Shown in pieces: positions 2,687-64,000 of a DNA stretch of 64,000 nt. The DNA is taken from the NCBI GenBank assembly GCA_051294905.1, contig CM119371.1, positions 22,694,001 through 22,758,000 on the forward strand. Direction: 5' to 3'. The notes beneath the pieces are model-generated. The model did no database searches. It saw only the letters and a program-made list of their open reading frames with translations, and was not told where the DNA came from. Position 1 is the stretch's first letter; each line of letters starts with the position of its first letter. The DNA comes from Botryllus schlosseri. Lineage: Eukaryota. Position numbers and translations under genes: made by a program.

Positions 2687-3355
2687 TTATGGTCTGCTGA
2701 AACCGAACATTTCAAAATCGTTCCGGTAACTGTTATATATGTCTTCGATGGTTCCAAGAGGAACTGAAGCCATGTATTTTTCCAATTTCTCTATGTCTGT
2801 TTGCTCTGATGCAGCGTAATTGCTCGGGAATGACATGTTCTCCATTCGCAGCATCTTCATGAACTCAGTCATGTCATTGTTAATAGTTTCGACATGCGCG
2901 ATGAAGTCGTACCGTATCGTGCACGGTAGACATAAGTCGTAATATAACTTCCAATGTCGATCTCTGTCCCTATCCATGGCTGCGTATTTCAGAAACTCAG
3001 CGAATGTCGCCAACTTCGTACCCCGGCCTTCCGCCGATACATTTGAGTGAATCTTTCGCGACATATCCGCGAAGTCCCTGCTCCAAGGATACTCCTTTTC
3101 GAGTTTATTTCGATACGCCGACAAGAGTCTGTAAACCGGATCGCGTACTATGATCAGTCTCTTGTAATTTCGTAACCGTTCCGCGATTCCTGTCGCGTTT
3201 CGCAAGCGCCTCAGGTCTAATTTGGCGTCGGCTAATCGGTGCGCAAGCTCTGACTTGACTTCTCTCGGGTTTGTAGTATTCACTAACTTTTCCGTGGTAA
3301 GTAGTACCTTCTTCATGCTGGAGCTAGCGCATTTCGGTATCTCGCAGAGAATGAA
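2687..3355 (-). CDS. Carbohydrate sulfotransferase (HNK-1ST/CHST8-14 family, Sulfotransfer_2), last coding exon; model complement(join(2687..3355,5776..5967,8600..8683)), ~314 aa
   Basis: 5'PSB-like motif CEIPKCASSSMKKVL, 3'PB motif IVRDPVYRLLSAYRNK, HW..YYDLCLPCTIRYDFIAHVET and C-terminal Y..DFEMFGFSRP*. Strong acceptor tcttttcgttttcag|TTC at 3356/3355, so the first 40 aa of track ORF 2687..3475 are probably intronic. Confidence 0.93.
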   Translation of the reverse strand, partial: FILCEIPKCASSSMKKVLLTTEKLVNTTNPREVKSELAHRLADAKLDLRRLRNATGIAERLRNYKRLIIVRDPVYRLLSAYRNKLEKEYPWSRDFADMSRKIHSNVSAEGRGTKLATFAEFLKYAAMDRDRDRHWKLYYDLCLPCTIRYDFIAHVETINNDMTEFMKMLRMENMSFPSNYAASEQTDIEKLEKYMASVPLGTIEDIYNSYRNDFEMFGFSRP

Positions 3356-4583
3356 CTGAAAACGAAAAGATGCAGTGTCAAGTTTCGGTTCAAAAATAAT
3401 CTGTCTACGACGTAGTAGCGCTATATGCAGGTTCGTTCGAATCACCTCTAATGGTATAAAAGTCTTGTGCTCCATGGGCCCTGTTCCAAACTAATCGTAC
3501 GAGAAAGCACTGATGTCGATAACTATTCTTCATGCGATCTGTCATATATATATATTTCCAGAACTCATTTCAAACCAATGAGGCATAGAGAATTGCAACG
3601 TATTAAACAACTTTTGCGATGAGAGTTTGGAGAATACGTAACAATTTTGTTAGCTTAACGCTGATGGGAAATTACATAAATCGTGTCAACGCCGTGGCGG
3701 CCCAGATTGATGCGGATTGCGTTGCCGTCAACATATCATCATCAGATGTAGTCAGGGTAGTCTGGATTGGTACTCAAGGATAAGTAACACCCTTTATTTC
3801 TAATCAATTGCAACTAGAAGTAGCGATATAATAGAATATGTCGCAACTAATGCAAGTAGAAGTTTGAAGGTAGAGGTCTAGAATGTATTGGATGAGTAGT
3901 TCAAAAAGAAGGTTTGGTCCAATCATCGCATACTTTTAGTAAAGTCGATAAGTGGTGGCATCTTGAAATTGAAAGTTGCATAATCGCGAATAACACAAAA
4001 CGACTGAACGCAATGTAAAGGTAGCCTTAGTCAAAGTTCACAATTGGTTCAAGCTTTGACGATATATTCAATTCATATGACACAGAGATCATTTCACTGG
4101 AAGGCCATGACAATTTCACTCGTAAAAGCGATGTCAACATATCGTAAAACTACTGTCTTAAATCCCAAAGGAGGTCGTTGTTGTTTACTAAACAAACGAT
4201 TTGGACCAAGAGCGGTGAAATTCACCATATAAAGCAGGGTTCTTAAATCATGGTTCACTAATGGTATACTATGGGGTCGCAACGCCACCAGAGCGACTCT
4301 TGAATACAAATGCAACTAATCTTGAATTTTTGCAACAAAAACATTTCTTCGGCGCTTCGCACGATTTCCTGTGGATAGTTTGTACATATCCTGCGTCATT
4401 GTGTTAGGTACTATAACCAATAAGCGAGACACGTAGACAAGTCGTTGCTACAATATGGCTTGATCATGAAAATGTGCCGAACTTTGCATTATCAAATTGG
4501 TTTGGATTCATGATTTTCCGACATTAGTTCTCTGTAAAACACCGTCGGAGACCGATAAGATGCTTAAGTATAGGGATGTACAA

Positions 4584-47578: not shown

Positions 47579-48418
47579 GTTGGGTCCAGCTGTCAGACAC
47601 AATCAAGATACAGATGAACAACCCTATTAAAAAGGGCGCAATGATCTTCAGAGGGAAGAAAAAATTCTTGAATGGATGGCGTGACATGGCGATCAAATTG
47701 ATTTCTGAAAACGAAGCAAATTTTAAAGAAGTGGAATTCCTATTGAAGCTCGGACAACATTCGAATGTGATTCTCGTTTATGACGCGGGCGTTTATCCTC
47801 AGAACTTGACACCTTATATATACATTGTCATGGAATTTTGTCCCCAAACGCTGAAAGATTACATCGACGGATGCAAAGGAAAAAAATTTGACTTCGTAAG
47901 AAATTGGTCTTACGCGAAACAACTCGTGGAGGGTGTTGCGTATATTCACAAGCAAAATATCTTACATCGCGATATCAAACTGGAAAATATACTTCTGACG
48001 AAGTGTGGTGAATATCTTCGGGTCGCGGATTTCGGTATTAGCAAGCAGATGAAGGAAGATCAATCCGTAGCCAACATCACCTCGCGGGGAATGGGAAGTG
48101 AAGGATTCCAAGCACCGGAAATGTTACAAAAGTATCCCACGGCCTCTTTTTACTCAGATGCTTATTCAATAGGCATCGTCCTCAGCCTTCTTTTTTCTAA
48201 CGGATATCACCCTTTTGGTCCCGATCAAAACAGATGGCGTACGAATATAATCGACCACAAAGGACTTGACCTTTCCCATATTGTTGTTTTCGAGAAACCA
48301 TACACCACAAAGAGAACGGAATTGATTACACTTATCAAGCTAATCCTAATTCGCAGCCCGCGTAACCGCCCCCGTCCCGAGGATATGCTGAGCAATCCAT
48401 TCTTCGAGAGGCCATCAG
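47579..48418 (+). CDS. IRE1-like Ser/Thr protein kinase domain, single phase 1-1 exon
   Basis: MAIK, KEVEFL, HRDIKLENILL, ADFGISK, GSEGFQAPEML, SNGYHPFG....R..NI and RP...MLSNPFF follow IRE1 kinase signatures. Acceptor ttgattag|gt, donor tcag|gtgagt. Confidence 0.92.
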
Positions 48419-49984
48419 GTGAGTCATTACGATGCGTAAAGTTCCACGATGGAATGGAATCCTGATGATGCGGGTAAGACATTTGATCTCCAATCGCGGT
48501 CACGGAATATTTGTACACCAGAAATTATGCTGCGGAAATATTAAGTTAGGGAACCACTGGCCTGAAGCAATCTGGGGATTTCTCTTTCGTGTTTAAAAAT
48601 TTCGTTAGTGAACTGAAACATAGATATTTCTGGTTTGTTGTCCACTTATAATATGCCCCAGCAATTAAGGTACGGGCCATATTTGCGAAAAGGCCTATGT
48701 GATTTTCTCACGCGGAGGGGTGATGGGTCGTTTCTGCATGCTTCAAAAAAATCATGACAACGTAATCGTGACGTTCTTACAACATCCGCTTCATTTATTC
48801 ATCCAAACCGGATTGGACTGCTCAGGGTGTGCCACGAGATAATGAGCTAAAATTGTTGTCGTGGACATAAAACAAGAGGCTCTCCGCGCTTAAATTATGA
48901 GGCGGTCTCAAATTAATGTTGAAAGTGTAGAAACATTTTGGCAGCGGTCCTTTCCCCCAGCAACCTTTACATTCGAACTGCAGTGTACAGATTTTCACAA
49001 AAAGTATATACATCTATACTTGTCTCTGTGATGTTATGGTGACTCTACACTTCTTAACCCTTAGCGAAATTTCTGGCACGGCTTTATTCAGTCTTGCGAT
49101 TTCTCGGCCCGGTCACGGAATAAACTAAATTTTAGATAATTGTCATTTGGTATGAGCGTGGAAGAATAATGTCTTACGATATCAAGGAGGTTTAGGTACA
49201 TCGAGTATCGGCGTATGTTACTGATGTACAACGACTGCTGAAGATGAATTGGTGCCGGTAACATGCTTTGCACACAAATATACCATAGGCCAGAGGTTAT
49301 TAACCTTTTTTGTCATCGCGGACCCCCCCCCCCCAAGGACCCCCCTCTCCAACATGTTTCAGTTCAAATTTACCTCAAATATAGTAAAACCTGCATTTGT
49401 CTTGTGTGAATATCAACTGTAGGGTACAGATAAAGATCAACAAAATGAATTTTCTTGATAATAACATGCTATTTATGGAAAATTGCGAAGACATTCTGCA
49501 GCGAATTCTGTAGCTGCAATTCTTGAAATACGTGGTCGTGCTTGAAATCCACGTCGTCGATTTGATTCGAACGAATCTAATAGTTAACCGCAACGCATCA
49601 GACGACAATTTTGGGTATGATATGGCACCAAAATTGAGAAACAGAACATAAAACGTCCAGCCTAGGCATTTATATCTAGCAGCTCATATTGAAGTTACTC
49701 AGGAATAGCGGTTACAAGAGAAAATTGAATTTTGCAAACAATTTTTGTGAAAACCCCAACGAATCATCTGTAGGCAGCAATTTGTTGGCATCGGAAAGCT
49801 ATTGGCTAATACAAGGGTTCTCAACTTCCCATGTATAACGGGCTGCATTTCAACAACTATAGATGCTGCGGGCAGCAGAACAATGTCACTTTACTTTATG
49901 TACGTACAAGTCGCATTACTGTAACTGTTTTCGTAATAGAGGCCTTTATCACATTGATCTCTACACCTCTCATGCAAAATAAAG

Positions 49985-52220
49985 TGATATGAGAATTCTG
50001 GCGATTCGGGATCATTTCTGTGCAAACCAATCAACTATTTCTCCTTTCCTACCATGGCTGGAGCCCTGCACCAATAGTTACAGAAATCATCTTCGTCAAG
50101 TTGATGTTTTTCGCTGGCCTCCTCCCCACGTTTGCCCTGCCAAACAACCCCTCTGCAAATATGTCCAGTAAAATAGAATGCACCCATGCAAGGTCTGTGA
50201 AGTCAGCGGATTCATCCGATGCTAGGATAAAGTAGCTTCGAGGGCGACATGTTTCAGAAACTGCGATAAAAGATCGACTGACATTGCTGTTACTCTTTGG
50301 GACACGGTTTAATCAGACAACTGTACTTCGACATCTGTCACGTATTGTTGTACTTGCTGCAAGGTATGGAAACAGCGAAAATTCGCGCAGTGTGCTAAGG
50401 TTCTATTAAAATCACACCTTCTCTATCAGTTTTATTGGCTTTAGCGAGATTCCAAGCAATTTTTAAAAATTTAAAAATTTTTTAACAATGACTCGAAGTA
50501 TGGATTACAGGACTTGGTACATAGCTAGCAACGTTTTTTTTTAATATCTCGCGAATATGTATTTTTTACCTCCGGATGGAATTGTCGTGGTATCATTTTA
50601 AGCTTCTAAGCTTCGTTACGACAACTGTTCTTCGACAAATACCCATCGCTTTTCCATTTACATCTGAGAAAACAAATTCATTGTTCCACGCAAAGTTACA
50701 GACCCAGTTTCGTCGTTTAATGTACCTTTCCTTGTTCTTGTTTCTGTTCAAAACAGTTGCGGTGAGTGAAACACGCTTCAAAAGTGCACTACGCAGCGGG
50801 CTTCTCCTAAATCAGAGTCCAGACGAAAACCGATAATCCAAATAGTAACAGTCTAAACTCGAGCATATCGGGAAACCAGAACACATCAAAGAATAAGGAA
50901 TCGTTAAACAAAACGGAGACGTTGCGATAAGAGAGCTATATAGCTAAATTAACATTTAACAATACCGTATTACAGGGGCGGCCAACCTTTTCAGCCAACG
51001 GGTCACATTCGATTGACGAAATATTGCTCGATCCACTAGCAACGCGAAGCGCGAAAAGTTTTCGAGGTTCATAGCTCAATAATATCGTCACTTGACTATA
51101 TTGCGGACCTGCTGTATATCGTTAGGCTCAGTTTGCAAGGACCAGACTATTCGGCGCCTGGACATAAATTTCGATTAACTGCAAAATACGTTGCGGGCCG
51201 CAGAACATTATTACCAAGTATTTGCGCGCTACTAATGAATTTAGGCTACTGTAGCCTATTTACCGGTCGTATACGGGCATTTAGTACATTTTTATGCACT
51301 CTAAAGCATTAATGGACAGCGTTCGTAGGTTTGCAGTTGCTGCTTCTCGTGAGAATATGTATCTTCTAGCGGCGCAAGTAAATCTCTCCATGGGAAATGC
51401 ATTGCATTCGTTCCCAAATCTGTATATGCCATTCAAACCCTTCCACCAGAGAACTGAACTCTCGGTTTCAATGCGGGAGCTAGCAAGTATAAAATTACGG
51501 AAACTTTTTCGTTACAGAGGCCATTATCACTTTGAGTTTTCAGTGATATGAGAAGTCTGGCGTTCGGGGTTATTTCCAAGCAAACCAATCAACCCTTCTC
51601 CTTTCCTTCCATGGCTGGAGCCTTGCACCAATAGTAAAAGAAGTCAGCTTTGTCAAGTTGATGTCTTCGCTGATGCCCTCCCCACATTTGCCCTGTCAGC
51701 ATTTCCTCTGGGAAATATGTTCAGTCTGGTAAAATACACCTAGATAATTAGCTATGCGATGTGTGCGGACTCGGTGGATTCGTCCAATGTTAGGTTGAAG
51801 TAGTTTAGGCGGCAACGTGTTTCGGAATATGCTATAGGAGATCGACTGACATTGCTCTTACTCTTTCGGTAACTGTTGAATCAGACAACTTCGAACTTTA
51901 TCAGGTGATGTTGTTAACTAAAACAGGAAACATTGGATATTTGCACAGTACGTTAAAGTTTTATTGAAGTCATTAGCAGATTTCTTGAGTTCAGCGATAT
52001 TCCAAGATATTTTGAACAATGCGTCTGTGAGTTCTTCGGCAATTTTAACAAAGACTCGAAGTATGAATTGCTGGACTTGACACCTAGCTACCAACGTTTT
52101 TATAATATCAGGCGATATATATAACCCCGCAAGAAACTGTTGTAGTAGCACACGCTTCTACGCTTCGTTACAACAACTGTTCTTCGACAAATATGACACA
52201 TCGGTTTACCATTCCAATAC
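49985..52220. repeat. Two diverged direct copies (~49985-50660 and ~51540-52220) of a coding-like segment inside the kinase intron
   Basis: Shared blocks ccatggctggagcc.tgcaccaatag, gatcgactgacattgct and acaactgttcttcgacaaata. Confidence 0.8.
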
Positions 52221-53468
52221 CGTGCCAGTAGTAATTGCGGCCATAATGAAGGAAGTCGGGGGCTGCAAAATAATCGTCTGCGGGCCGCATGCGAACCGCA
52301 GGCCGAGGGTTGAGAACCCCTGCATTAGGCGTTCTTTCATTTTCACAAAGGGGTAACAATATTAAAAGTAAGAAATCGAGTGACAACATGTTGCGCGAAG
52401 CCTGTAGAAATTTTTTACTTTTGATAAATCTATCGCAAGTTATTCTGCTTTGTTGTAGTGTACGAAGATCTACCTATATGAAATGCCAATGCGTCGGAAC
52501 TGATATTTTAGTCATCACATCTCAAGTGTTGCGGCACGACTAATCAAATTTTTGGTTGGCCTTGTAAGTTCACAATCTGTGCAATCCATTTTTGATATTA
52601 TTACTAATTTCGGAAATTACCTCGCGGGCCACTCAAAACCTTCTCGCGGGCCACGGGTTGGCCGGCCCTGCCGTATTAGGAGTAATTGCGTTGATACTGG
52701 AAGATGTTTCGAGAACCACTGGGCTAATAGAATGAGTTTGCTCAGTAGAACATTTCATCTCAGACGATCATTCTCTCTATGTGAGTCCTGAAATTTCAAG
52801 TGAACAGTTATGAAACGAAACTGCGTCGTAATATCTCTAATACAAATAAGGTTGTCAACCATTTCGCATATTAGAAGGTTTCGTAGACCCCCTGCAAGAG
52901 CTTCACGTACCCCCAGTGGAGAACCACTGCTATACGCTGAACGTCGTCCGTTGAGCACCAGCATACAAAATGAAGAACGAATTATGCCTACCCTACTTAT
53001 ATTTTCGTAACTACTGACCACCGTGGTATCGTAAGACACAGTCCCTTTTCATCGACTATATGGCATACATAATTGATTTCTCTGTAAAACAATGATTAGA
53101 TTTGATTTTATGACGAATATGACATAAACTGAACATAGGAAAGAGACGTAATGGTCGTTGCATCAACTGACGGTGTTAGAAACGGCGGATTTGTAAACTA
53201 CACTTTCCATTTGCACATCCTGATCATTTCGCGGCGTAGCGCAACGAGCTATTCCCGCGCATGGTCGCTATATTCGATGCAATAATGTGATTGAGAATAT
53301 TACTGTCCTGCATTATATCTAGTCATCAGCAGATAATATTGCATTTTAGAAGACGGATGATAATCACCACTCTTCTTTGATTCAAATAGTATCGTAATTT
53401 ATCATGTTTGATGCTTGATTATTGTGCGAAGCGCAAAAATGTTGTGGCTAGTCGAGAAGTATGTAAAT

Positions 53469-55181
53469 TAGAGACAGGCAACATACGGCCGCGGCCGGAT
53501 CCGGCCCGCGACGTGATTTTGAGCGGCCCGCGGTGAATTTTAGTTCGTACATGATAATGTGACCCGCGGCCACAGTCTGGCGCAATCGCAAACTACTTGC
53601 TTATTACGTCAAATCAGTGCCTGTTATTCTTTATCGTGTGTGTTGAGTAAAGGGCGAGAGTGAAGGTTACGCGCACGTTCGTGAACGCGAAAAGGCTTTC
53701 AATACCGGCCTTTACGCATGTACTCAACCGTATTGAAATGATATCTTGGTAATTTTGGAAAAAAAATCCCAACCCTTGTTCGTATACAATAAATTATACC
53801 ATGCAGGGAGGCGCAACACACCGCCCGCGGTCACAATCTGCTGCAATTCTCCACTACTTGCCCAATACGTCAAATTATAGTGACTGCGGTAGGTTATTCA
53901 TTCTTTTTTTCGGACACAAATAATATTGATTTTATCTCTTCTTTAGTTCATTGTTTCTTTGCGTGCCACATGCAGCCAGAGTTTGAGGAACCTGTTCATA
54001 ACTTTCATCTACCATTATATTACATTAATAAATTCTCTGAATACTGTTTTGGTTTTATGCTTCAAACTTAAAATGTAAATTATATACGATTAATCCATGC
54101 ATAGATAATTATTGTTTAATGTATCGATTCCAGTGGTGGGATCAAGTCACTACCTTCGAGTCGCGAGTCATCTCGAGTCATTGCACATTTTGACTCGAGT
54201 CAAGTCAAGTCAATCGATTTTCGAAGGTGACTCGAGTCGATTCAAGTCACTCGATTTTTGGAGGTGACTCGAGTCAAGTCGAGTCAAGTCAAGTCAAGTC
54301 ACGAGTCAAGTCACAATTCAAGTCAAGTTGATTTTTCGAAGTACGAGGCGATAATTGCGTCATTGCATTTTGATAGCTGTTTGAAAGTTGCCATTTATTT
54401 GTAATCGAGGGACGAATATAGAGTTAAATATATACGCAAAAAAGCCTTCGTATCGCTCACGCACACGTAGAACTGCAAAACTACGTAAGTAACTGTATGT
54501 TTATGGCGTCAATCTCTAATTATATCAGTCAAAATAGAGAATAGGAAACCTGAGAAAGGTAAAACGAATTGATATGATGCAATGTACTAGCTACCTACAC
54601 ATCTGATGGATGAGGAGTAATATAAACTTAATAACTTCATTAAAATCTGATTCAAATCATACAGCATGAGGTTTCGTTAAGGTGGATACCGGTCACAATA
54701 AGCATTATATAGAAAAGATATCTAAACTGTGCCATTAGATTACTTTGCTGTTAGTTTACGAGCTCCGCTCACTTGCGGTCACTTTATTTGTGACCGAGCA
54801 ATGGAGGCTAAGTGAAACGCAATATCATTAAGTGATTACTCGCTTTCGCAGTTCACACCATCGTATCGAGAACAATCCGAATATAAGCAAGATAAGCCAT
54901 TTTTTATCGACACCGTTAATTGATGACTTGAAATTGACTCGTAAATTTTGCTCCGAGTCACGAGTCAATCCACATTTCTGAAACGCCGAGTCAAGTCAAG
55001 TCAAGTCATTTTTGGAAAGTGACTCGAGTCAAGTCAAGTCATTCGAAAAAGTGACTCGAGTCTGACTCGAGTCAAGTCATGACTCGAGTCATCCCAACAC
55101 TGATCGATTCAGGAATCCGGCCCGCCAATTACTTCCTTTCTCCATAGCCGGCCCGCCGACTGAAGAAGTTGCCCGCCCCTG
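53469..55181. mobile_element. hAT (Charlie-like) element
   Basis: cggccc subterminal repeats, right TIR gttgcccgcccctg, perfect TSD atgtaaat. Confidence 0.85.
54131..55102. mobile_element. Nested hAT element with gactcgagtc/caagt repeats
   Basis: cagtggtgggat / atcccaacactg; perfect TSD atcgattc. Confidence 0.92.
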
Positions 55182-55734
55182 ATGTAAATGAACATGTACA
55201 TGCACGCTGCGCAAAGATCTGAAATTTCATGCTAACAGTCAAATAAAACATGAAAATTCCACACACCCAATCAATAAAACAGAGAAGTTGCTGATTTAAA
55301 GCGTAGTCGAGCTGTTATTTGGCATAACTCGTACCACCGTCTTACAATATCCGTACTAAGTGAATTGTAGCAATACAAATGTCCTCAGAAATACGAGAAG
55401 CAATATCCGTCGTGGTGGAATTCATGCTAATTGTACCTTATTTACCTATGGCCCCATACCTGTAATAAGCACTATTTGCTATGTCCCATTTCCTTACTTA
55501 AAATCGAAAATATGCATTCGGTGATCGGCGTGGATTTTTATCTGGGATTGTAGTTTGTAGCAAGAATGAAAATGGGTGGGAAAAGGGACATATCAATGGT
55601 GACGTAACAGGCAAATGAGTAACATGAAGGCAATCTTATAGCAATCCTTATTTTGTCTTCGATTACTTGCGTAAGGATTGAGTTCAAGGAGGCAAAGTGA
55701 GTGTAATTGTGAGCAATCGGATTACAATTTGAAG

Positions 55735-55931
55735 GTGCTGACCACGCAATTCACGGAAGTCGGACTACGGAGTTGACATCTTCGACGGGGAAGAATAAAA
55801 TCATGTACGAAATAGAGGAGCTTTACAGCCTTCGGGACTCGCCTTTGTCGAAGGCACGTCCACCGAATTTAGAAGAAATCATGAAGGCAACGGAGCCGGC
55901 GAACCCCGAGCGGAACAGGAAAAGTCCGTGA
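55735..55931 (+). CDS. Candidate terminal exon encoding an eIF4E-binding (4E-BP/4E-T-like) motif
   Basis: Phase-1 acceptor tttgaag|gt; GADHAIHGSRTTELTSSTGKNKIMYEIEELYSLRDSPLSKARPPNLEEIMKATEPANPERNRKSP*; AATAAA 50 nt after the stop. Confidence 0.65.
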
Positions 55932-55980
55932 ATATTGACTTCCTCACCTTAAGCATATATTTATCAAATGAAGTACCATA

Positions 55981-55986
55981 AATAAA
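55981..55986 (+). promoter_or_regulatory. Polyadenylation signal candidate
   Basis: AATAAA just downstream of the TGA at 55929-55931. Confidence 0.5.
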
Positions 55987-57293
55987 CCTATAATTAGGAC
56001 TTGACCGACCCGAGCACTCGAATTCGAATCGAGTACCGAAAATCGATATGTCCTAATAACGATAAAATACGCTCTTCACACTTAGGTTAGATAACACACA
56101 GTTGAATTGATTTAAGTACCGATTATGATCGCCGTTTCCCAGACCACAAAAAGCCATGATGATGAATCCCGGTTGATAGTAACGTCTAAACTTGGGGCCA
56201 TTATTCATGCTAGAGATTTTCCAAACTTGGCAGTAGTGATTTCTCTTTCACAGTAAATTGATAGTATACCATGACGTTTCTCCAAACCTACCAGTGCATT
56301 CTTATAAAATATGTTACCATACTGACATAGTATAGAGTTTTCGTATAGTAATATCGCACCTTTGTCGTACCAGGCAATACACATTTGAGTTGGCAGAAAT
56401 TCCTTGCCTCAGTGTCATAACAGGGCGCCATAAAATTACGAGGAAATATTTACGTGTCACCGATGACTAGTGGGAAAGCATTGCGTCATGGAGCGTATAA
56501 GCCTAGTATACTACCGACATATCTTAATATAATGAGTTTATATTGGTAGCATAGTAGCAAGTACCATAGACAGAAATTAGGATGATGCATCGAAATATGA
56601 TAAACCTGTGGTTCCAAAGTTGGGTGCTAGAAGCCCCTGGTGGAATTGGTGGTCCAGAATATGGAGAAAGAGGTTATGTACTGAAGAACTCTGTTTGGGA
56701 AATCATTAAATTAATAAGGCCGTGTCGGCTTCATATTCGCTGGTATTTTGAAACCATTGCGTCAATGGTAACACCTTCTTTCAGCGACGACCGCAACGCA
56801 ACGCACGGGCCCACAGAAACAGTGAGCCTTGTGCCTTAAGCCTTCAGGCAGCATTGTTCGCTTTCCCATAAATTATTTTCTGCCCTGCCTAAAGCTTTTG
56901 GACGATTTTTTTAAATTTTTAGGTAAAACCAGAACAGAGTCGATTCATAATTTTGCTGATAAATCTGAATCCGAATTGGTGCCAGATTCGTACTTTTTCA
57001 GATACGCCCGGAGTACGTGGGTGTAAGGTGTGGGATTTATCCAGATACAGGGTCGATATTGGCATAATAGTGTTATTTGTGGTCGGAGCTGGATTGGATC
57101 AAGATTCCTGCTTTTCCTGATATGTCCGCACTCTCCACAATCGTATTGGAGTGGACCAGGGAATTCGTCGATCCGCACAGCACTAGTTCCCACTGTTTGG
57201 CGTTTTATGAAGGGAAATTGCCCATTCAGCCCTCGATGCGTTTGAGGAATTACCGTACGCTTTCGGCCCAATTTGTGTGTGTGTTACACAGTA

Positions 57294-57780
57294 ATATATA
57301 TATATATATATATATATATCGGCTTTCAATTAAATAAAAGGGCAAAAGAAAACAGGAAACAAAGGAACATCAAGATAATCAGTTTTGGGCCCTTATTAAG
57401 CGCCTCCAGCGTGGGCGGTCGTGGGCGTCTTCGAGCGATAGCCCGCGTTGCGCTAGCTCGGTCTCTATTGTTGAGCGCCATGTGGTTCTGTTCCAGCCAC
57501 CTCTGCGCCATGGCTCCGTCGGAATGTGGTTGATGATGGCGGCGGCTGGTTGATCGTCTTGATACCGCACTAGATGACCGATTAATTAAGCGTAAGCGTC
57601 GTTCAGCAGCGAGCAAACGGCATGGGACTGTTTTTGTGAGTTTGCGTAGCGCATTGGTGGATATGTGCTCCGGGTGGTGGATGCCGAGTGCGTAGCGGAG
57701 AAGTGCTATACAATATACAGTGTTTCTTGAATCGTTCGATATCGAAATACTGCATAACACGCCAACCTGAAAGTAAAACT
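57294..57780 (-). mobile_element. RTE-clade LINE 3' end with (TA)n tail
   Basis: LLRYALGIHHPEHISTNAL...RRLRL, then a frameshift to WRRGGWNRTTWRSTIETEL...AHDRPRWRRLI, matching RTE ORF C-termini. Confidence 0.8.
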
Positions 57781-59763
57781 CCGCACGATCAGTGCCAATT
57801 ACAACAGTATAGTGCAGTTTTATTCATTAAACGCGGAACAGAACCGTATTTTCGTATGACCATGAAACGTACAACTGATGTCCCCCTAATTCGGATAAAA
57901 CCGTTTCCTCCGTCAAAAGTGAGCGGAACCACTCCAGTATAGGCGTAGTGGACTTCATGGCATACTTTATTCGTAATGTAAAGCTGTATTAGAGTCTTTC
58001 GTATTCTTGCAATGTGTGTGATAATTAATAGTGCATTGTTTATGTTTTTACAGGGACCTCTTAACCAACAAAAGATCACCCAGGCGCGACAGTTTGTGCA
58101 TTCTATCGCAAATTTCTTTTCATTGACTTGCGTTGCGTCTTTTCCAGAAGCACGGTACAATTTACTGACATTCTCCTATACAACGGACCTGCAACGCATT
58201 CGTCTAATACGTTGTCGGTTTCTTGCAGTTAATTGCAGAAGTTTACGACACAATTAATATGGGGAAATATTTGCTGTCTCATATATTCCATCCATATGTA
58301 CGAGGTGTGACTGTCAAATCTATAAGATGTCGCAAATGTTGGCGCATATTGAGTGCGGGATGTAGGATTAGGAAGATAGTGTCAGTATGAACACGTGATG
58401 GGGTTTTCGGTGATTGAATTCAGTTCGCTGAGTCGGTACGGTATATCTCATTCTTTCTTTTATATCATGTGGTGATCGTCTAATTAACCAGTACAAGTAT
58501 GCAAGTATATGTCATGAGAAAGATGCAAAGAAGTTTATCTCAAGACTAATGAACCGTGCAAGGGATCGCAGAGGAGGAAGCGTTAACAACTTTTCCCAAC
58601 AACAATAATATTTTTAAAGTAGGTTTGGTAACACATGCCAGACTAGTTGTTTTGTACTTACAAAACCTTCGTTGGTATATCATGCTTCGTTGATGGGGTA
58701 TAGGCGAGTGATAATGTGATGACAATGCAATTGTGTCCCATGGTGTTTCCATAGAGAAAGACGATGGCGATGCGCATGGATATTTCCTGACAATAGGCTA
58801 AAATATGATTTGGATCAGGCTGTTCTCCATTTGTTGTGCTTGTTCGTTAGGAGGGAGTGGATATGTAAAACTTGACAGAAAATCAACCGATAGATGCATA
58901 CCCGAAACAGTTTGCAAAACAGTTCTTGCTTATCATAGAACAAATACTGAACAAAACTATAACGATGCACGGCGGTCGTCATAGAGGGTCAGCCACCATG
59001 AGAAATTTGCATCAGTGGAAACGGCCTACCAATAGTTTAATCTTCAGTTTACTAATAAACTGCCATTTCGTCGTTAGACTGATGCAAGTTTGACGAAACT
59101 TATCACTTGCAGTGGAATGAACTGGACTAATGAAGGAATCCTAATCCATAAATAGGTAGCAGAATATGAAATAATTACTATAGTCATATGTATCAAGGTA
59201 ACAACTACTACGCGATAGTAACAAAGAGGACCAAACGTAATATTATCCTTATTCAATCGGTCTACGTGCGTATACAGGGTCGTGGCTCGTGGGCAGCTCC
59301 TGAAAAATCGAACTCGGCTACTGAAATTTGGGCTTTTTATCTTTCTCTGCTAGCTATTTTCTTCCCGTCTTCCACTATCTTTAATGTGGTGAGCTGAGTC
59401 GATATGGGGGTCGCCTAATATTTTACTTACTGGCTGCTGAAATCAATCAATGGCTTGGTTGTGCTCATCATCGTCAACGCAGTCAGAAGAAGGGATGGTT
59501 GGCTTATTTCGACGTTCTAACCTGATATTTCAGTTTATGATTTAAGGTTGCGGGCGCTAATAAGTATATTTACATTATTGACTGCCATGCTACCATTGAA
59601 CACCATCCACTCATGGCGAAGATAATTTACAGCTCTTTCAAAACAAAGAACAGATGAGATAATGTGCCACTTGATTCCTAATGGAAGGCGACATTGAATA
59701 CAACCAAACACAATACCCAATATGTAGTGCTGGAGGATTAGGCTTCGGTCCGAGCAACATCAT

Positions 59764-60028
59764 CATATCGTCGCAGTGGAATCAAAGTATCTTATGTCCA
59801 GTTTTCAAATTTTTAAGCTCCCTTCTTAAAACTTGAAAAAAATCTACTTTTCTAAAATTTTTGTATTTCTTTCGGTCATATCTCAGCCATGCTTATGTCT
59901 GTCTCAGTGTATCAAAGTTAATCGGGGCCAATATATGGCTGAGAGAAGATGAAAATTTCACTCAAAGTTAATTTTCCCAAAATGTGTAAAATGGACATAA
60001 GATACTTTGATTCCACTGCGACGATATG
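59764..60028. mobile_element. MITE with perfect 37-bp TIRs (superfamily unassigned)
   Basis: catatcgtcgcagtggaatcaaagtatcttatgtcca and its exact reverse complement at 59992-60028. Confidence 0.88.
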
Positions 60029-61069
60029 TCTGTGGTTTCCACCTGTATAGTTGATTTGAACTATTTCAGGATGCCGCGATATAATGAGATATTACTATAA
60101 TACGGTCAGGTCGGTTCGTTCGTTTAGCTTGAACCTTTTAGGTGTGGGTTTAAGTATTTAAAACCAGCTGACCGTGTGGTGTCTGGTGCACTGACTACTA
60201 TAGCATATCTGCGTTAAGACTTGAATTCCTTGATGAGACAGCGGAATTATGCGCAACAAAAACTAGATTCAGTGTTGTGACAAAATATAAGGAGCATTAT
60301 TTCGGTGCTCCTTGATTATCCAGAATCATGATGATTTTCGGAATACGGTGCGACTTGGTCCCTGCCTAGTACCACATTTATATTTACTGACTATGTGTGG
60401 CAGTTTACCTTTCCAATATAGCACGACTTGAGTATGCGTTATTGTCACCGGCTTGAACCAACAAGTCCCTTTTGATTTCGTCCTAGCAACTATATACCCG
60501 ATGCCGTACGCTATTAATATATCTGAATCAATCCGAATCCAGTGTATTTTCTGTTCCATAAGTAACAAAAATTTTTCGTTACATACATAACTTGAAGGAT
60601 TAAATTTATTGGCCTTATTAACTTTCCTTGGGTGATATCAACGATAGAACATCTCTTATTTAATCATGTTTATTCAAATATTATAAGATTTCTGAGTCAT
60701 CTCGAAAGGAACGTCAAAAGACACGTCAAAAGACACAATGATTAGCAATAAATATTAAAATCATTGAAATGTTTACGTTTTGTGAAAATCAGGTTCCCAT
60801 GGTTATGTTCTTTCGACAGTTCGTTTTGCGCGACAGTAATATGGGAGTTGTGATACCGATGGATTAAGAAATTACACAATGATCTCTGGCTCCCAAATCT
60901 TCAGTCTATAGGAGCAGATTCTATGCTAGCTCAACACTTTGATACAAGCTCTACCTACCGGACATATGCACAATACATTAATATCGGTCTTTTGCAAAAA
61001 TAGTTGTGGACGTTCAAAATTTGTAGCTCGAACGCTTCATCGGTCCCCACCGGGAGGGTCGGGAGGAAC

Positions 61070-61200
61070 CAGGGCTGTGGAGTCGGTAAATTTTATCACC
61101 CATTCCGGCGCCGACTCCGACTCCACACATTTTCAACATACCGACTCCGACTCCTGAGTCTTTAAACGTACCGACTCCGAATCCGACTCCAACAGTATTA
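61070..61200. mobile_element. hAT MITE arm with (ccgact)n repeats
   Basis: cagggctgtggagtcgg terminus followed by ccgactccgactcc arrays; the other end was not found. Confidence 0.7.
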
Positions 61201-62489
61201 CCAATTTACTTCGAAAGTCATATGCCACACTGTCGGTTGAATGACTATCATACAACCAATACACATATGCAAGCATATGATTTACCGTGGCATGAAAAAT
61301 TGTTTCATTGTGGCACAGCTCGAATTATCCACTATGCAATTAACATGAAATAATGATTTGCTAAATATCCGCTCTTTTTCATATTTTATAAGTTTTTATA
61401 ACATGGACTCTCTAATATCATAATATGGATGAATCATTCAAATATTATATGTATCCAACCCTGTCTAATTAAAATGTAGATAAAAAATCCAAGAGAAGCT
61501 CTTCCACATGTGTATGAGTCAGCAACTAATACAGACATTGAACTTACTGATTTTCTTATTATACACACTATACTGATTACAAGCACACACACTCTTACTA
61601 CTAGTAGACATTGGTCATAATTGAAATTCAATAAGTAATCCAATACCATAGCTTATATGTCTAGTCTAGTATTTAAAGTCTTTCTTGATCATTTGTTCGA
61701 CCCAAACAGCTAAGTTGCACTACAAATATTTTTAATTTTGTCAGGTGGGAAGCATCGTTTGGTTATATTTACATCAATTTTACAATTTAACAAAACCAGC
61801 CAATGCATTTTCTCTGTCACAATATCATGTTATAATTCCAAAAATTGCATCAATTTTGACTGCATCGCGAAAATGCATATTGCGATTTTCTTCCTCTCTG
61901 CAACTGAATTGTAATTTGTAAGTAATGTCTAATTATATCGATATCAGGGGTGGCCAACTTTTTCGGCCAAAGGGACACATGAGATTTACGAACCATTGCG
62001 TGGGCAACTGGAATGTTGATAACCTATTTTTAGTCGTCCGATTGGAACGAAGCGAATTAGGTAACATTACAAACAAGACTTATATTACTATGCTCCAAAA
62101 TTGATAACCGAATTATGTCATGAAACTGTGCAGTGTGCAGTCATGCCCTGGTCGCGCCAAGCGCGAAATTTTTTCATAGGTTATGACTGAATTTTATCAA
62201 TAAGTATATTACTAACATATATTGGGGGTGCATCTGTATACCACTGGTCTCATTTGGCAAGGACAGGATTATTCGACGTTTAAATATAGCAATATCGACG
62301 GTTTCGGTGAACATGCCTCTATCATTTTGTGCAAATGTTTCGTCGTCGAAGATCTCGCTGCGAGTGCACAAGCGAAGCCGCATGTTAGGCGACACGTTAT
62401 CTCGTGATTGCGAATATAGTTCGACTCAATTCTATAAATAACATGTATTTATAATTTTCAGAAAGGGGCCCCAATACTGAATGCAAAAA

Positions 62490-62730
62490 ATCTATGCAGG
62501 TACAATTTGACGTCAGCTAATCGGTGTGCAAGCTCCGTCTTGACTTCTCACGGGTTTGCAGTATTCACCAACTTTTCGGTGGTAAGAAGTACTTTCTTTA
62601 TGCTGAAGGTCCCGCATTTCAGTATTTCGCAAAGAACGAACTGAAAACAAAACGATGCTGTAGTAAGTTTAAAAGGTTCACAAATGTTCGTTTGAATCAC
62701 CTTTAAAGGTTTAAAAATCTTCTTCTGTCT
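62490..62730 (-). pseudogene. Truncated duplicate of the sulfotransferase intron/last-exon junction
   Basis: ttttcag|FVLCEILKCGTFSIKKVLLTTEKLVNTANP*EVKTELAHRLADVKL aligns with ~3215-3470, including intron sequence. AGA>TGA stop at 62548-62550 and IPK>ILK. Confidence 0.88.
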
Positions 62731-64000
62731 CGTAATAAATGAATTACATGCCTCCATCATTCTTTCACCTTGATTACTCGTCTTGTGTTAAAACGAACAA
62801 GTAATGTTGATTGTGTCATAGCCTAACGAGTAGAATTGTGAACCGAATTAGGCGGATAATTGTCCTAATTAACCTGCGTTGTTTAGCCCACGTGCAAATT
62901 TTACTTTTGTTCCGTTCCTGAGAATTTTCGCGTATTAAAGTGATTGTCCGGGTTATCCGAATTTATCAGAATTTACTGTGTTCTATATCTATGTATTGAG
63001 TCTAGCAGAAATTTCCATTCACATATAGTTTTGGGCGTTTGGCTCATTATATATCTGAATACAGTACATTCTGACATGGATGCATGAGAAAGTTACGAGA
63101 GAGACAGTAAAAAAATTAGACGCTTGTTCGACGCCAAATAAGCTTGAGTGACTGCGGTCTTGAAGACTACCATCATATCGGGTCTCCCAGTCTTTACCAT
63201 GCCGATGCAATGTATGTTAGGCAAAAATCATTCCATTTTCGCACTCGAACGCTAGTGACTATTACCTACTGTATTTCACGGTGGGTAAATAAAAGAAATC
63301 TCTCTCTCTCTTTCTCTATTGTGCGTTTCAGATACACTTTACCAAATATTCGATAGTGAGCGCCCAAGAGCATCCTGAAAACAATCTTAAATAAACATGC
63401 TGAGTGACTCATCGTTGTCACCCAAGTCTTATCTCAGATAATTGACATGATCGTCGTGATGGATGGCACAGTGAATCGGCACCGGCACTTATCTGAGCTG
63501 TATTTTGATTACGGCATAGAGATTTTTGACAAAGCGACGAAAGGTATTTTTAGGGAATTATTATAGCGTTAGATTATCCCAGTTGATACAATTGGTGACG
63601 TTTAAAGAGCCACCATGGACTTCAGCAGTTCAGCATTGTGGCTTGAGTCGCCGGAAGTGCAGTTAGAATTAGCAATATGACGTCACAGGATTTTGATCAC
63701 GCTCTCGTTCACATTATAATTTTTATTACTATTGCCGTAACACAATGGCGCATATCGCCTTTTTCAGGCTACGTGCGTCATAGAAACGATTTTTTTTTGT
63801 AATCCCATATTATCTTTGACTTTCGTAATCTTTTAGGAATGATTTCATTTTTTCTCTCAAGTAATCGTCAGTCTTTCTCGCACCAATGCGCCGCATCTAC
63901 GTCTCTGCTGCCTACTCGTGGCACGGTTCACTTTCAGTCTGGGCAATGCACTACCTCAGTAATGAGACCAGCGATGAAGAGCCCAGAGAAACCTTCGTCA

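Follow-up and report, generated by a model that had tools for sequence, protein, structure and literature searches.

A 4E-BP-type eIF4E-binding module under purifying selection in Botryllus schlosseri and its possible use as the terminal exon of a distantly IRE1-like kinase

The proteins that control eIF4E have a short docking helix in common, and the eIF4E-docking proteins known to us are scaffolds, repressors or RNA-binding adaptors. In a review (PMC8558276) the canonical eIF4E-binding motif is described together with a lateral-surface motif, Pro-Gly-Val-Thr-Ser, in which Val81 is critical, and the non-canonical contact is stated there to add 2-3 orders of magnitude of affinity. C8ORF88 is described in PMC10670996 as a short vertebrate protein that binds eIF4E via the canonical motif and is without the phosphorylation sites of 4E-BP1. 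Here we report on a stretch of 64,000 nucleotides of the Botryllus schlosseri genome (assembly GCA_051294905.1, 495.5 Mb; contig CM119371.1, positions 22,694,001 to 22,758,000, here G000:C1:22694001-22758000), which is referred to below as the window and in which an exon for a 4E-BP-type module lies downstream of a protein kinase exon on the same strand. Positions are those of the window unless a contig is named. The original prediction, made from the letters of the DNA, was that these two exons form one protein, an IRE1-like kinase fused to an eIF4E-binding module in place of an RNase domain. The coordinates and splice phases that it gave, the peptide that it quoted for 55806-55871, the TGA and the AATAAA were all correct when checked by script.

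The 4E-BP-like exon lies at 55735-55931 (+). It follows an AG at 55733-34, its first two bases finish a codon (phase 1), and its 65 codons end in a TGA at 55929-31, 50 nt past which there is a polyadenylation signal, AATAAA, at 55981-55986 (+). With an in-frame TGA upstream at 55710-12, the stop-to-stop frame is 72 aa long (55713-55928). This frame matched the Pfam family eIF_4EBP with an E value of 6.5e-5 over profile positions 44-87 of 117, and no other Pfam family was found for it at E <= 1. The match narrowly misses the curated cut-off of 24 bits (72-aa frame, 23.2; the 42-aa frame that opens at an internal ATG, 17.3; whole-genome scan, 22.0). Only four solved chains matched the 72-aa frame at E <= 10, namely, three of 4E-BP1 and one of Thor (E 0.07-0.7). 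The alignment to residues 43-88 of 4E-BP1 has no gaps and places the canonical Y-x4-L-hydrophobic motif, which is YEIEELY at 55806-55826 (+), on Tyr54-Met60 of 4E-BP1, its Tyr on Tyr54 and its Leu on Leu59, while Ser-Pro at 55839-55844 (+) falls on Ser65-Pro66. Thus, the module is of the 4E-BP1 type and its Ser-Pro is in the Ser65 register, as had been predicted, whereas the likeness to 4E-T that had been put beside it was reproduced by no search. The Tyr and Leu of the motif and the Ser-Pro are invariant across the four family members that were aligned. Among the classical, mTORC1-regulated phosphosites (Thr37, Thr46, Ser65 and Thr70) the Ser65-Pro equivalent is the sole one retained; Thr46-Pro has become Ser-Thr and Thr70-Pro has become Ala-Arg, and the lateral-surface Pro-Gly-Val-Thr-Ser is replaced by Met-Lys-Ala-Thr-Glu.

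Five places in the genome match eIF_4EBP: a canonical 4E-BP, a 316-aa frame, a copy of the module on C5, the window frame, and a near-twin of the window frame at C1:22617613-22617798 (+), which is 132 kb upstream and 94% identical. The canonical 4E-BP is intronless, is 104 aa long, and scores 128 bits over profile positions 6-116; it and the 316-aa relative retain Pro-Gly-Val-Thr. The C5 copy scores 39.6 bits (E 5.6e-10), which is over the cut-off, and is 54% identical to the window frame (tblastn E 2e-11). Therefore, the homology of the window frame to 4E-BP follows by transitivity. On these sequence comparisons, what the short exon encodes is a genuine 4E-BP-type module, which corresponds to the central eIF4E-binding part of 4E-BP, and the resemblance is more than chance. 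The possibility that it belongs to a repeat family was rejected, as the exon with its flanks was found at 5 places only. A scan of metagenomes gave 589 pattern matches and no relative among them. In an atlas cluster comparison the best named cluster scored 0.88, below the 0.9 line, and carried the name of the family of Eap1, an eIF4E partner of yeast, on 15% of its members, which is a lead only.

The two copies of the module on C1 belong to a segmental duplication that spans at least 25389-61017 of the window (at least 36 kb) and in which identity is mostly 84-91%. The kinase exon and the 4E-BP-like exon recur about 130 kb upstream on C1 with order and strand unchanged, the spacing being 4.6 kb in the paralogue, and both frames are intact. 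Between the copies, 55761-55928 shows 6 synonymous changes and 1 non-synonymous change (dS 0.176, dN 0.008, omega 0.044; Fisher p 5.6e-4), and in the two other frames omega is >1. The constraint is strong from 55761, the first 9 codons of the exon being free to change. The stop is at the identical codon in both copies, TGA in the window and TAA in the paralogue, and the AATAAA is kept. The omega of 0.044 with its p value shows that both copies of the 4E-BP-like frame are translated, and since the dS of the module is about that of the kinase exon and of the divergence of the flanks, gene conversion is excluded as the cause of the low number of non-synonymous changes. Comparison of the C1 with the C5 lineage gives an omega of about 0.9, from which it follows that the module changed fast before settling. 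Judged by this substitution pattern, the 4E-BP-derived module is real and functional and is under purifying selection in two copies. Part of the 3' flank of the exon, window 56162-56697, is present a third time, inverted and with 77% identity, at C1:22692897-22693427 (-), about 1 kb before the window, and the exon is absent from this copy.

The whole protein-kinase domain is contained in one exon of 280 codons plus 1 base at 47579-48418 (+) (Pfam Pkinase, E 2.1e-39). This exon is flanked by an AG at 47577-78 and ends in CAG|GTGAGT, the GT being at 48419-20 and the donor in phase 1 by script check. The catalytic HRD..K..N, DFG and APE motifs are present and the Gly-rich loop is atypical. The closest solved structures are IRE1 chains (E 3.6e-23, over residues 20-276). 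The lead of IRE1 is narrow, 85 bits against 82 bits for STK11 (E 4.1e-22), and the kinase of the genome's own IRE1 is 31% identical. The label IRE1-like fits the top solved match but is weakened by this 3-bit lead and by the low identity; the kinase would be distantly IRE1-like only, and 'IRE1-derived', which rests on about 30% identity and the narrow lead, holds in a loose sense. The kinase paralogue at C1:22612161-22612997 (+) is 89% identical and retains the donor. The catalytic motifs are intact in both C1 kinases, derived changes number 6 in one and 9 in the other, and between the two kinase exons dS is 0.156, dN 0.055 and omega 0.35. Like the module, the kinase exon is thus under purifying selection in two copies. 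Reading past the donor, a stop is reached after 15 codons, and the read-through is frameshifted in the paralogue. A perfect donor in both copies together with a frameshifted read-through tail indicates that the kinase needs something downstream. The prediction that this is not an RNase domain was borne out, in that no KEN domain (Ribonuc_2-5A) was found among the 115 plus-strand frames of at least 36 aa in 48419-64000; besides the 4E-BP-like frame, none of these frames has a Pfam match below E 0.02. Genome-wide there are 25 KEN places, and none is <6 Mb from the window on C1. A luminal or membrane part of the kinase gene was not found, and its 5' exons were not located, either with P0001 and its relatives, with the kinase loci L008 and L009, or by comparing one duplicate with the other. 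The segment 42418-42510 was considered as a 5' exon and rejected; it shows 4 synonymous and 0 non-synonymous changes but has no ATG and no family match, and its pattern may be chance among many frames.

What lies downstream could be the 4E-BP-like exon. The phase 1 donor of the kinase exon and the phase 1 acceptor of the 4E-BP-like exon are on the same strand, and joining them would preserve the reading frame in each copy. Furthermore, the alignments of the 4E-BP-like frame to Pfam and to 4E-BP1 begin 6-11 residues before the internal ATG (55803-55805, +), and in the 42 nt 5' of this ATG (55761-55802) the copies differ once, against about 5 differences expected under neutrality (P about 0.02-0.07). 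In both C1 copies this ATG is the first in-frame one after the upstream stop. Because of this constraint and similarity 5' of the ATG, and because no earlier in-frame ATG is available, an upstream coding exon seems to be needed. Between the two exons, no 90-nt segment is at least 95% identical between the copies and no plus-strand frame has a coding-type substitution pattern.

The single-exon kinase domain is matched at E <= 1e-10 at no fewer than 89 places, many of them in tandem clusters, and on this count the family is large and lineage-specific. Clusters are found on C3 at 16.1-17.6 Mb and at 20.0-21.7 Mb. A family of TPR-like frames (Pfam TPR_10/TPR_12) occupies 34 places, and at three loci such a frame of 270-313 aa lies 3' of a kinase exon on the same strand, 2.3 kb away in L008, 8.5 kb in L009, and 4.3 kb in L026. 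Given 89 kinase and 34 TPR-like places, chance alone predicts about 0.03 pairs of this kind. Donor and acceptor are in phase 1 at each of the three loci. A tree built from 30 kinase exons groups the window pair with L008 and L009 (99/99) and puts L026 in the other main clade. The window, the 20 kb beyond it and 30 kb around the paralogue were free of TPR-like homologues. Since a TPR-like frame with matching phases occupies the equivalent position, the 4E-BP-like exon would appear to be a terminal exon that was exchanged. The tail of P0001 was tried as a relative of the TPR-like frames and rejected, as there was no blastp match at 1e-3. Among relatives from elsewhere (20 scanned of 150 listed), the C-terminal domains were fn3 with Ribonuc_2-5A in 1/20, Kelch in 1/20 and Macro in 1/20. 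KEN exons at C3:46480-47822 were considered for the kinase of locus L017 and rejected, since the end of another kinase just upstream precedes them and the phase is 0.

Based on these findings the best single model is that the 4E-BP-like exon is the last coding exon of the kinase. The model is unproven, and we regard its chances of being right or wrong as evenly balanced; we infer the splice, the binding to eIF4E and any substrate from the sequence. If this is the case, then the phase 1 donor at 48418|48419 would be spliced to the phase 1 acceptor at 55734|55735 and the gene would encode a soluble Ser/Thr kinase, distantly IRE1-like, that ends in about 65 disordered residues. This tail would carry the YEIEELY helix, the Ser-Pro turn and a diverged distal segment, and the stop and the poly(A) signal would come after it. 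The 4E-BP piece would have replaced the TPR-like terminal exon in this kinase lineage. Competing with eIF4G for the dorsal surface of eIF4E, the tail would dock the kinase there, and this docking would place the kinase next to cap-bound eIF4E or partners of eIF4E, yield a repressor free of mTOR control, or do both. Without the Pro-Gly-Val-Thr contact the affinity would be below that of a full 4E-BP, given the 2-3 orders of magnitude reported for the lateral motif, and docking may be transient or regulated at the Ser-Pro. We propose, tentatively and as something that falls just short of an even chance, that a 4E-BP-derived docking cassette was captured as the terminal exon of an expanded family of IRE1-like soluble kinases, in place of the TPR-like tail, so that the kinase sits on the dorsal surface of eIF4E and provides a stress or immune route to cap-dependent translation which bypasses both mTOR-4E-BP and eIF4G-MNK.

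Several observations weigh against a kinase that ends in the 4E-BP-like exon. The acceptor, which had been called weak from the start, is indeed the weakest of the seven compared, its pyrimidine share being 0.44 (0.50 in the paralogue) against 0.61-0.78, and a 92-nt indel separates the copies right before it. An ATG with a purine at -3 adjoins the Tyr of the motif in the C1 and C5 copies, and the limits of homology fit a self-contained frame of 42-45 aa. There is no kinase within 20 kb of the C5 copy. As the duplication is at least 36 kb long, co-duplication alone has no force to link the two exons. The TPR-like parallel has its own exceptions: 31 of the 34 TPR-like frames are not beside a listed kinase and the one in L026 begins with ATG, so the TPR-like frames could be separate neighbour genes. 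In addition, some members of the kinase family stop a few codons past the kinase domain without a splice, and a 4E-BP motif was present in none of the 20 scanned relatives and in none of 231 fetched proteins.

The original prediction had put forward RNA evidence for the 48418->55735 junction as one of its checks. In 4 of 24 runs, two of contigs guessed to be RNA (X1, X2) and two of raw RNA reads (X15, X16) of which about 6 and 13 in 100 were read, depth was 0 on both exons (one X2 bin, 0.1), and the 48418->55735 joint was absent among the 15 of 29 joints listed. This also counts against the splice; at this coverage, the RNA result decides between none of the models. Reads and contigs landed only on repeats of the intron, for example, in bins 54006-55339. 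Among proteins of 39-126 aa the search with the module gave no candidate, and among those of 127-2000 aa it gave 9 candidates, none of which scored, so that no fused form was seen. These blank searches say little because the kinase's own product is absent from the protein collection, the best identity being 51-54%. In a full-text literature search no paper on a kinase that carries a 4E-BP-type module was found, and to this extent the architecture is undescribed, as had been claimed. The predicted fusion as a whole thus has the matching phases, the intact second copy and the counterpart position of the TPR-like frames in its favor, and the missing RNA joint, the ATG before the motif and the kinase-free C5 copy against it.

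The main rival is that the module is a stand-alone mini 4E-BP, a 42-aa peptide beginning Met-Tyr that is translated from the ATG at 55803 and has its own promoter or a non-coding 5' exon. If so, it would be a minimal eIF4E-binding repressor without mTOR control that is merely downstream of a kinase gene. The A at -3 of an ATG that immediately precedes the motif speaks for such a gene, and a purine at -3 is present in both lineages. Met-Tyr at the start of the motif is common to the C1 and C5 copies, and DNA homology between them is confined to 55794-55929, that is, from 9 nt before the ATG to the stop. The distance of the C5 copy from any kinase and the weak acceptor of the window exon point the same way, and so does the fact that intronless genes are usual for small translation factors in this genome, where 4E-BP, three eIF4E and IRE1 are single frames. 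There is also a vertebrate precedent in C8ORF88, which PMC10670996 presents as a small 4E-BP relative without phosphosites. On the other hand, large indels limit the alignment of the C1 copies 5' of the ATG to about 75 nt, and nothing like a shared promoter was seen there, yet both copies are selected. The 42 nt that precede the ATG show constraint and, as protein, still resemble 4E-BP. Neither RNA reads in the runs sampled nor the protein searches revealed such a gene product. We consider a stand-alone gene of this kind, with its role as an mTOR-independent minimal repressor, less likely than the fusion but the strongest of the alternatives to it.

It is also conceivable that the exon is spliced to another partner, which would be an unrecognised 5' exon within 48.4-55.7 kb or an exon upstream of a skipped kinase exon, and that the product is a 4E-BP-like protein without a kinase. 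The frame seems to require an upstream coding exon, and with the 5' exons of the kinase gene not located the exon set is incomplete; both points would suit this explanation. However, there is no conserved or coding-like block between the exons in either copy, a phase 1 donor is required, and no positive evidence was obtained, so this explanation is improbable. A non-functional relic, that is, a decaying and by chance open fragment of a duplicated 4E-BP gene, is rejected, for although the frame is truncated relative to the canonical gene, scores just below the Pfam cut-off, has a C1-C5 omega of about 0.9 and showed no expression, it has collected 6 synonymous changes and 1 non-synonymous change after the C1 duplication, its dS being the same as that of its surroundings, and the stop codon position and the poly(A) signal are kept in both copies.

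The putative intron between the kinase exon and the 4E-BP-like exon, 48419-55734 (+), is 7.3 kb long and filled with repeats (4.6 kb in the paralogue), with 72-78% identity between the copies. The inter-exon stretch 48416-50970 is colinear with C1:22612996-22616725 and is 72-78% identical to it, against 84-91% in the flanks. Faster evolution of the middle or a later homogenisation of the flanks could account for this difference. The repeats at 54006-55339 and 52005-52671 consist of tandem units of 5, 17, 32 and 37 nt with an AGTCA-type core. RNA and contigs cover repeats with this core very deeply on either strand, with many rearranged joints, and these repeats are an abundant transcribed family; an element of this type also lies downstream of the paralogue L008. 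Further downstream in the window, 57341-58674 has a depth of 2-4 in X16 in both read orientations and overlaps minus-strand frames of 165 and 128 aa without a Pfam match. A transcribed element and an unannotated gene are both conceivable here. At the other end of the window, a 267-aa frame at 2690-3490 (-) matches Sulfotransfer_2 (E 2e-40) and is probably an exon or an intronless gene of a carbohydrate sulfotransferase.

The other members of the 4E-BP family in this genome have features of their own. The C5 copy, at G000:C5:17830584-17830731 (-) (locus L003, 1483-1764), has a strong phase 1 acceptor 17 nt before the Met-Tyr and a phase 1 GT right past the conserved part. This layout resembles a symmetric cassette exon of 138 nt, and the same DNA is also inside an 82-codon frame with its own upstream ATG. 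The flanking sites hint that the module may act as a symmetric, shuffleable exon. A 454-aa frame with a BTB domain lies 6 kb upstream of this copy on the same strand. The 316-aa frame, at G000:C5:6329036-6329263 (locus L002, frame 1444-2394, +), matches eIF_4EBP with 37.7 bits; its N-terminus is 4E-BP-like, with the canonical and the Pro-Gly-Val-Thr motifs, and is followed by a proline-rich tail of about 220 residues, which makes it an unusually long relative. The genome contains introns; a single open frame nevertheless holds each of canonical 4E-BP, IRE1 and three genes of the eIF4E family, of which one is eIF4E-1-like, one is 4EHP-like and one belongs to a third class. The genome's eIF4E is a 210-aa frame on C2.

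If the kinase does end in the 4E-BP-like exon, the locus would be a compact and testable case of exon capture and a new link between signalling and translation. On the conservative reading, the locus shows a lineage-specific subfamily of truncated relatives of 4E-BP that have kept the canonical helix and the Ser65-Pro turn and have lost the lateral motif and the handles for mTOR, and such relatives, being under selection, pose the question of how much of 4E-BP the function requires. The present weight of either reading is that of two recent paralogues in one genome, for which the sampled runs gave no evidence of expression.

With 4E-BP1-3 and Drosophila Thor the module shares the central homology, that is, the Y-x4-L-hydrophobic helix, the Arg-x-Ser-Pro turn and the Pro-Pro..Leu linker, and with the genome's canonical 4E-BP it has 16 invariant columns in the alignment. 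It differs from 4E-BP1-3 and Thor in that only about 45-55 residues are kept, with loss of the lateral motif, Thr46-Pro and Thr70-Pro. Both ends of the frame fall within the family profile, so that the module is also without RAIP and TOS, the N- and C-terminal mTORC1 docking motifs of 4E-BP, and unlike 4E-BP it is possibly placed at the end of a kinase. C8ORF88, likened to the module by description only, is a precedent for a diverged and differently regulated mini 4E-BP and differs in being vertebrate, spermatid-restricted and stand-alone with no kinase. If, and only if, the two exons are joined, the product would also resemble MNK1/2 in being a Ser/Thr kinase brought beside eIF4E by a docking element. 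The MNKs are of another kinase family, reach eIF4E indirectly via eIF4G, and do not have the Y-x4-L-hydrophobic motif. The likeness to IRE1 and RNase L is that IRE1 chains are the top solved matches of the kinase exon and that Ribonuc_2-5A is present in 1 of the 20 scanned relatives. The difference is that the frames downstream of the window kinase exon have no KEN, whereas the genome's true IRE1 is a single 1198-aa frame, with kinase and KEN, on another contig. Counterparts within the same genome are L008, L009 and L026, which likewise have a single-exon kinase with a phase 1 donor and a same-strand frame behind a phase 1 acceptor 2-9 kb away. Splicing is putative in all of them; their tails are TPR-like and 270-313 aa long, whereas the tail in the window is a 65-codon fragment of 4E-BP behind a weaker acceptor.

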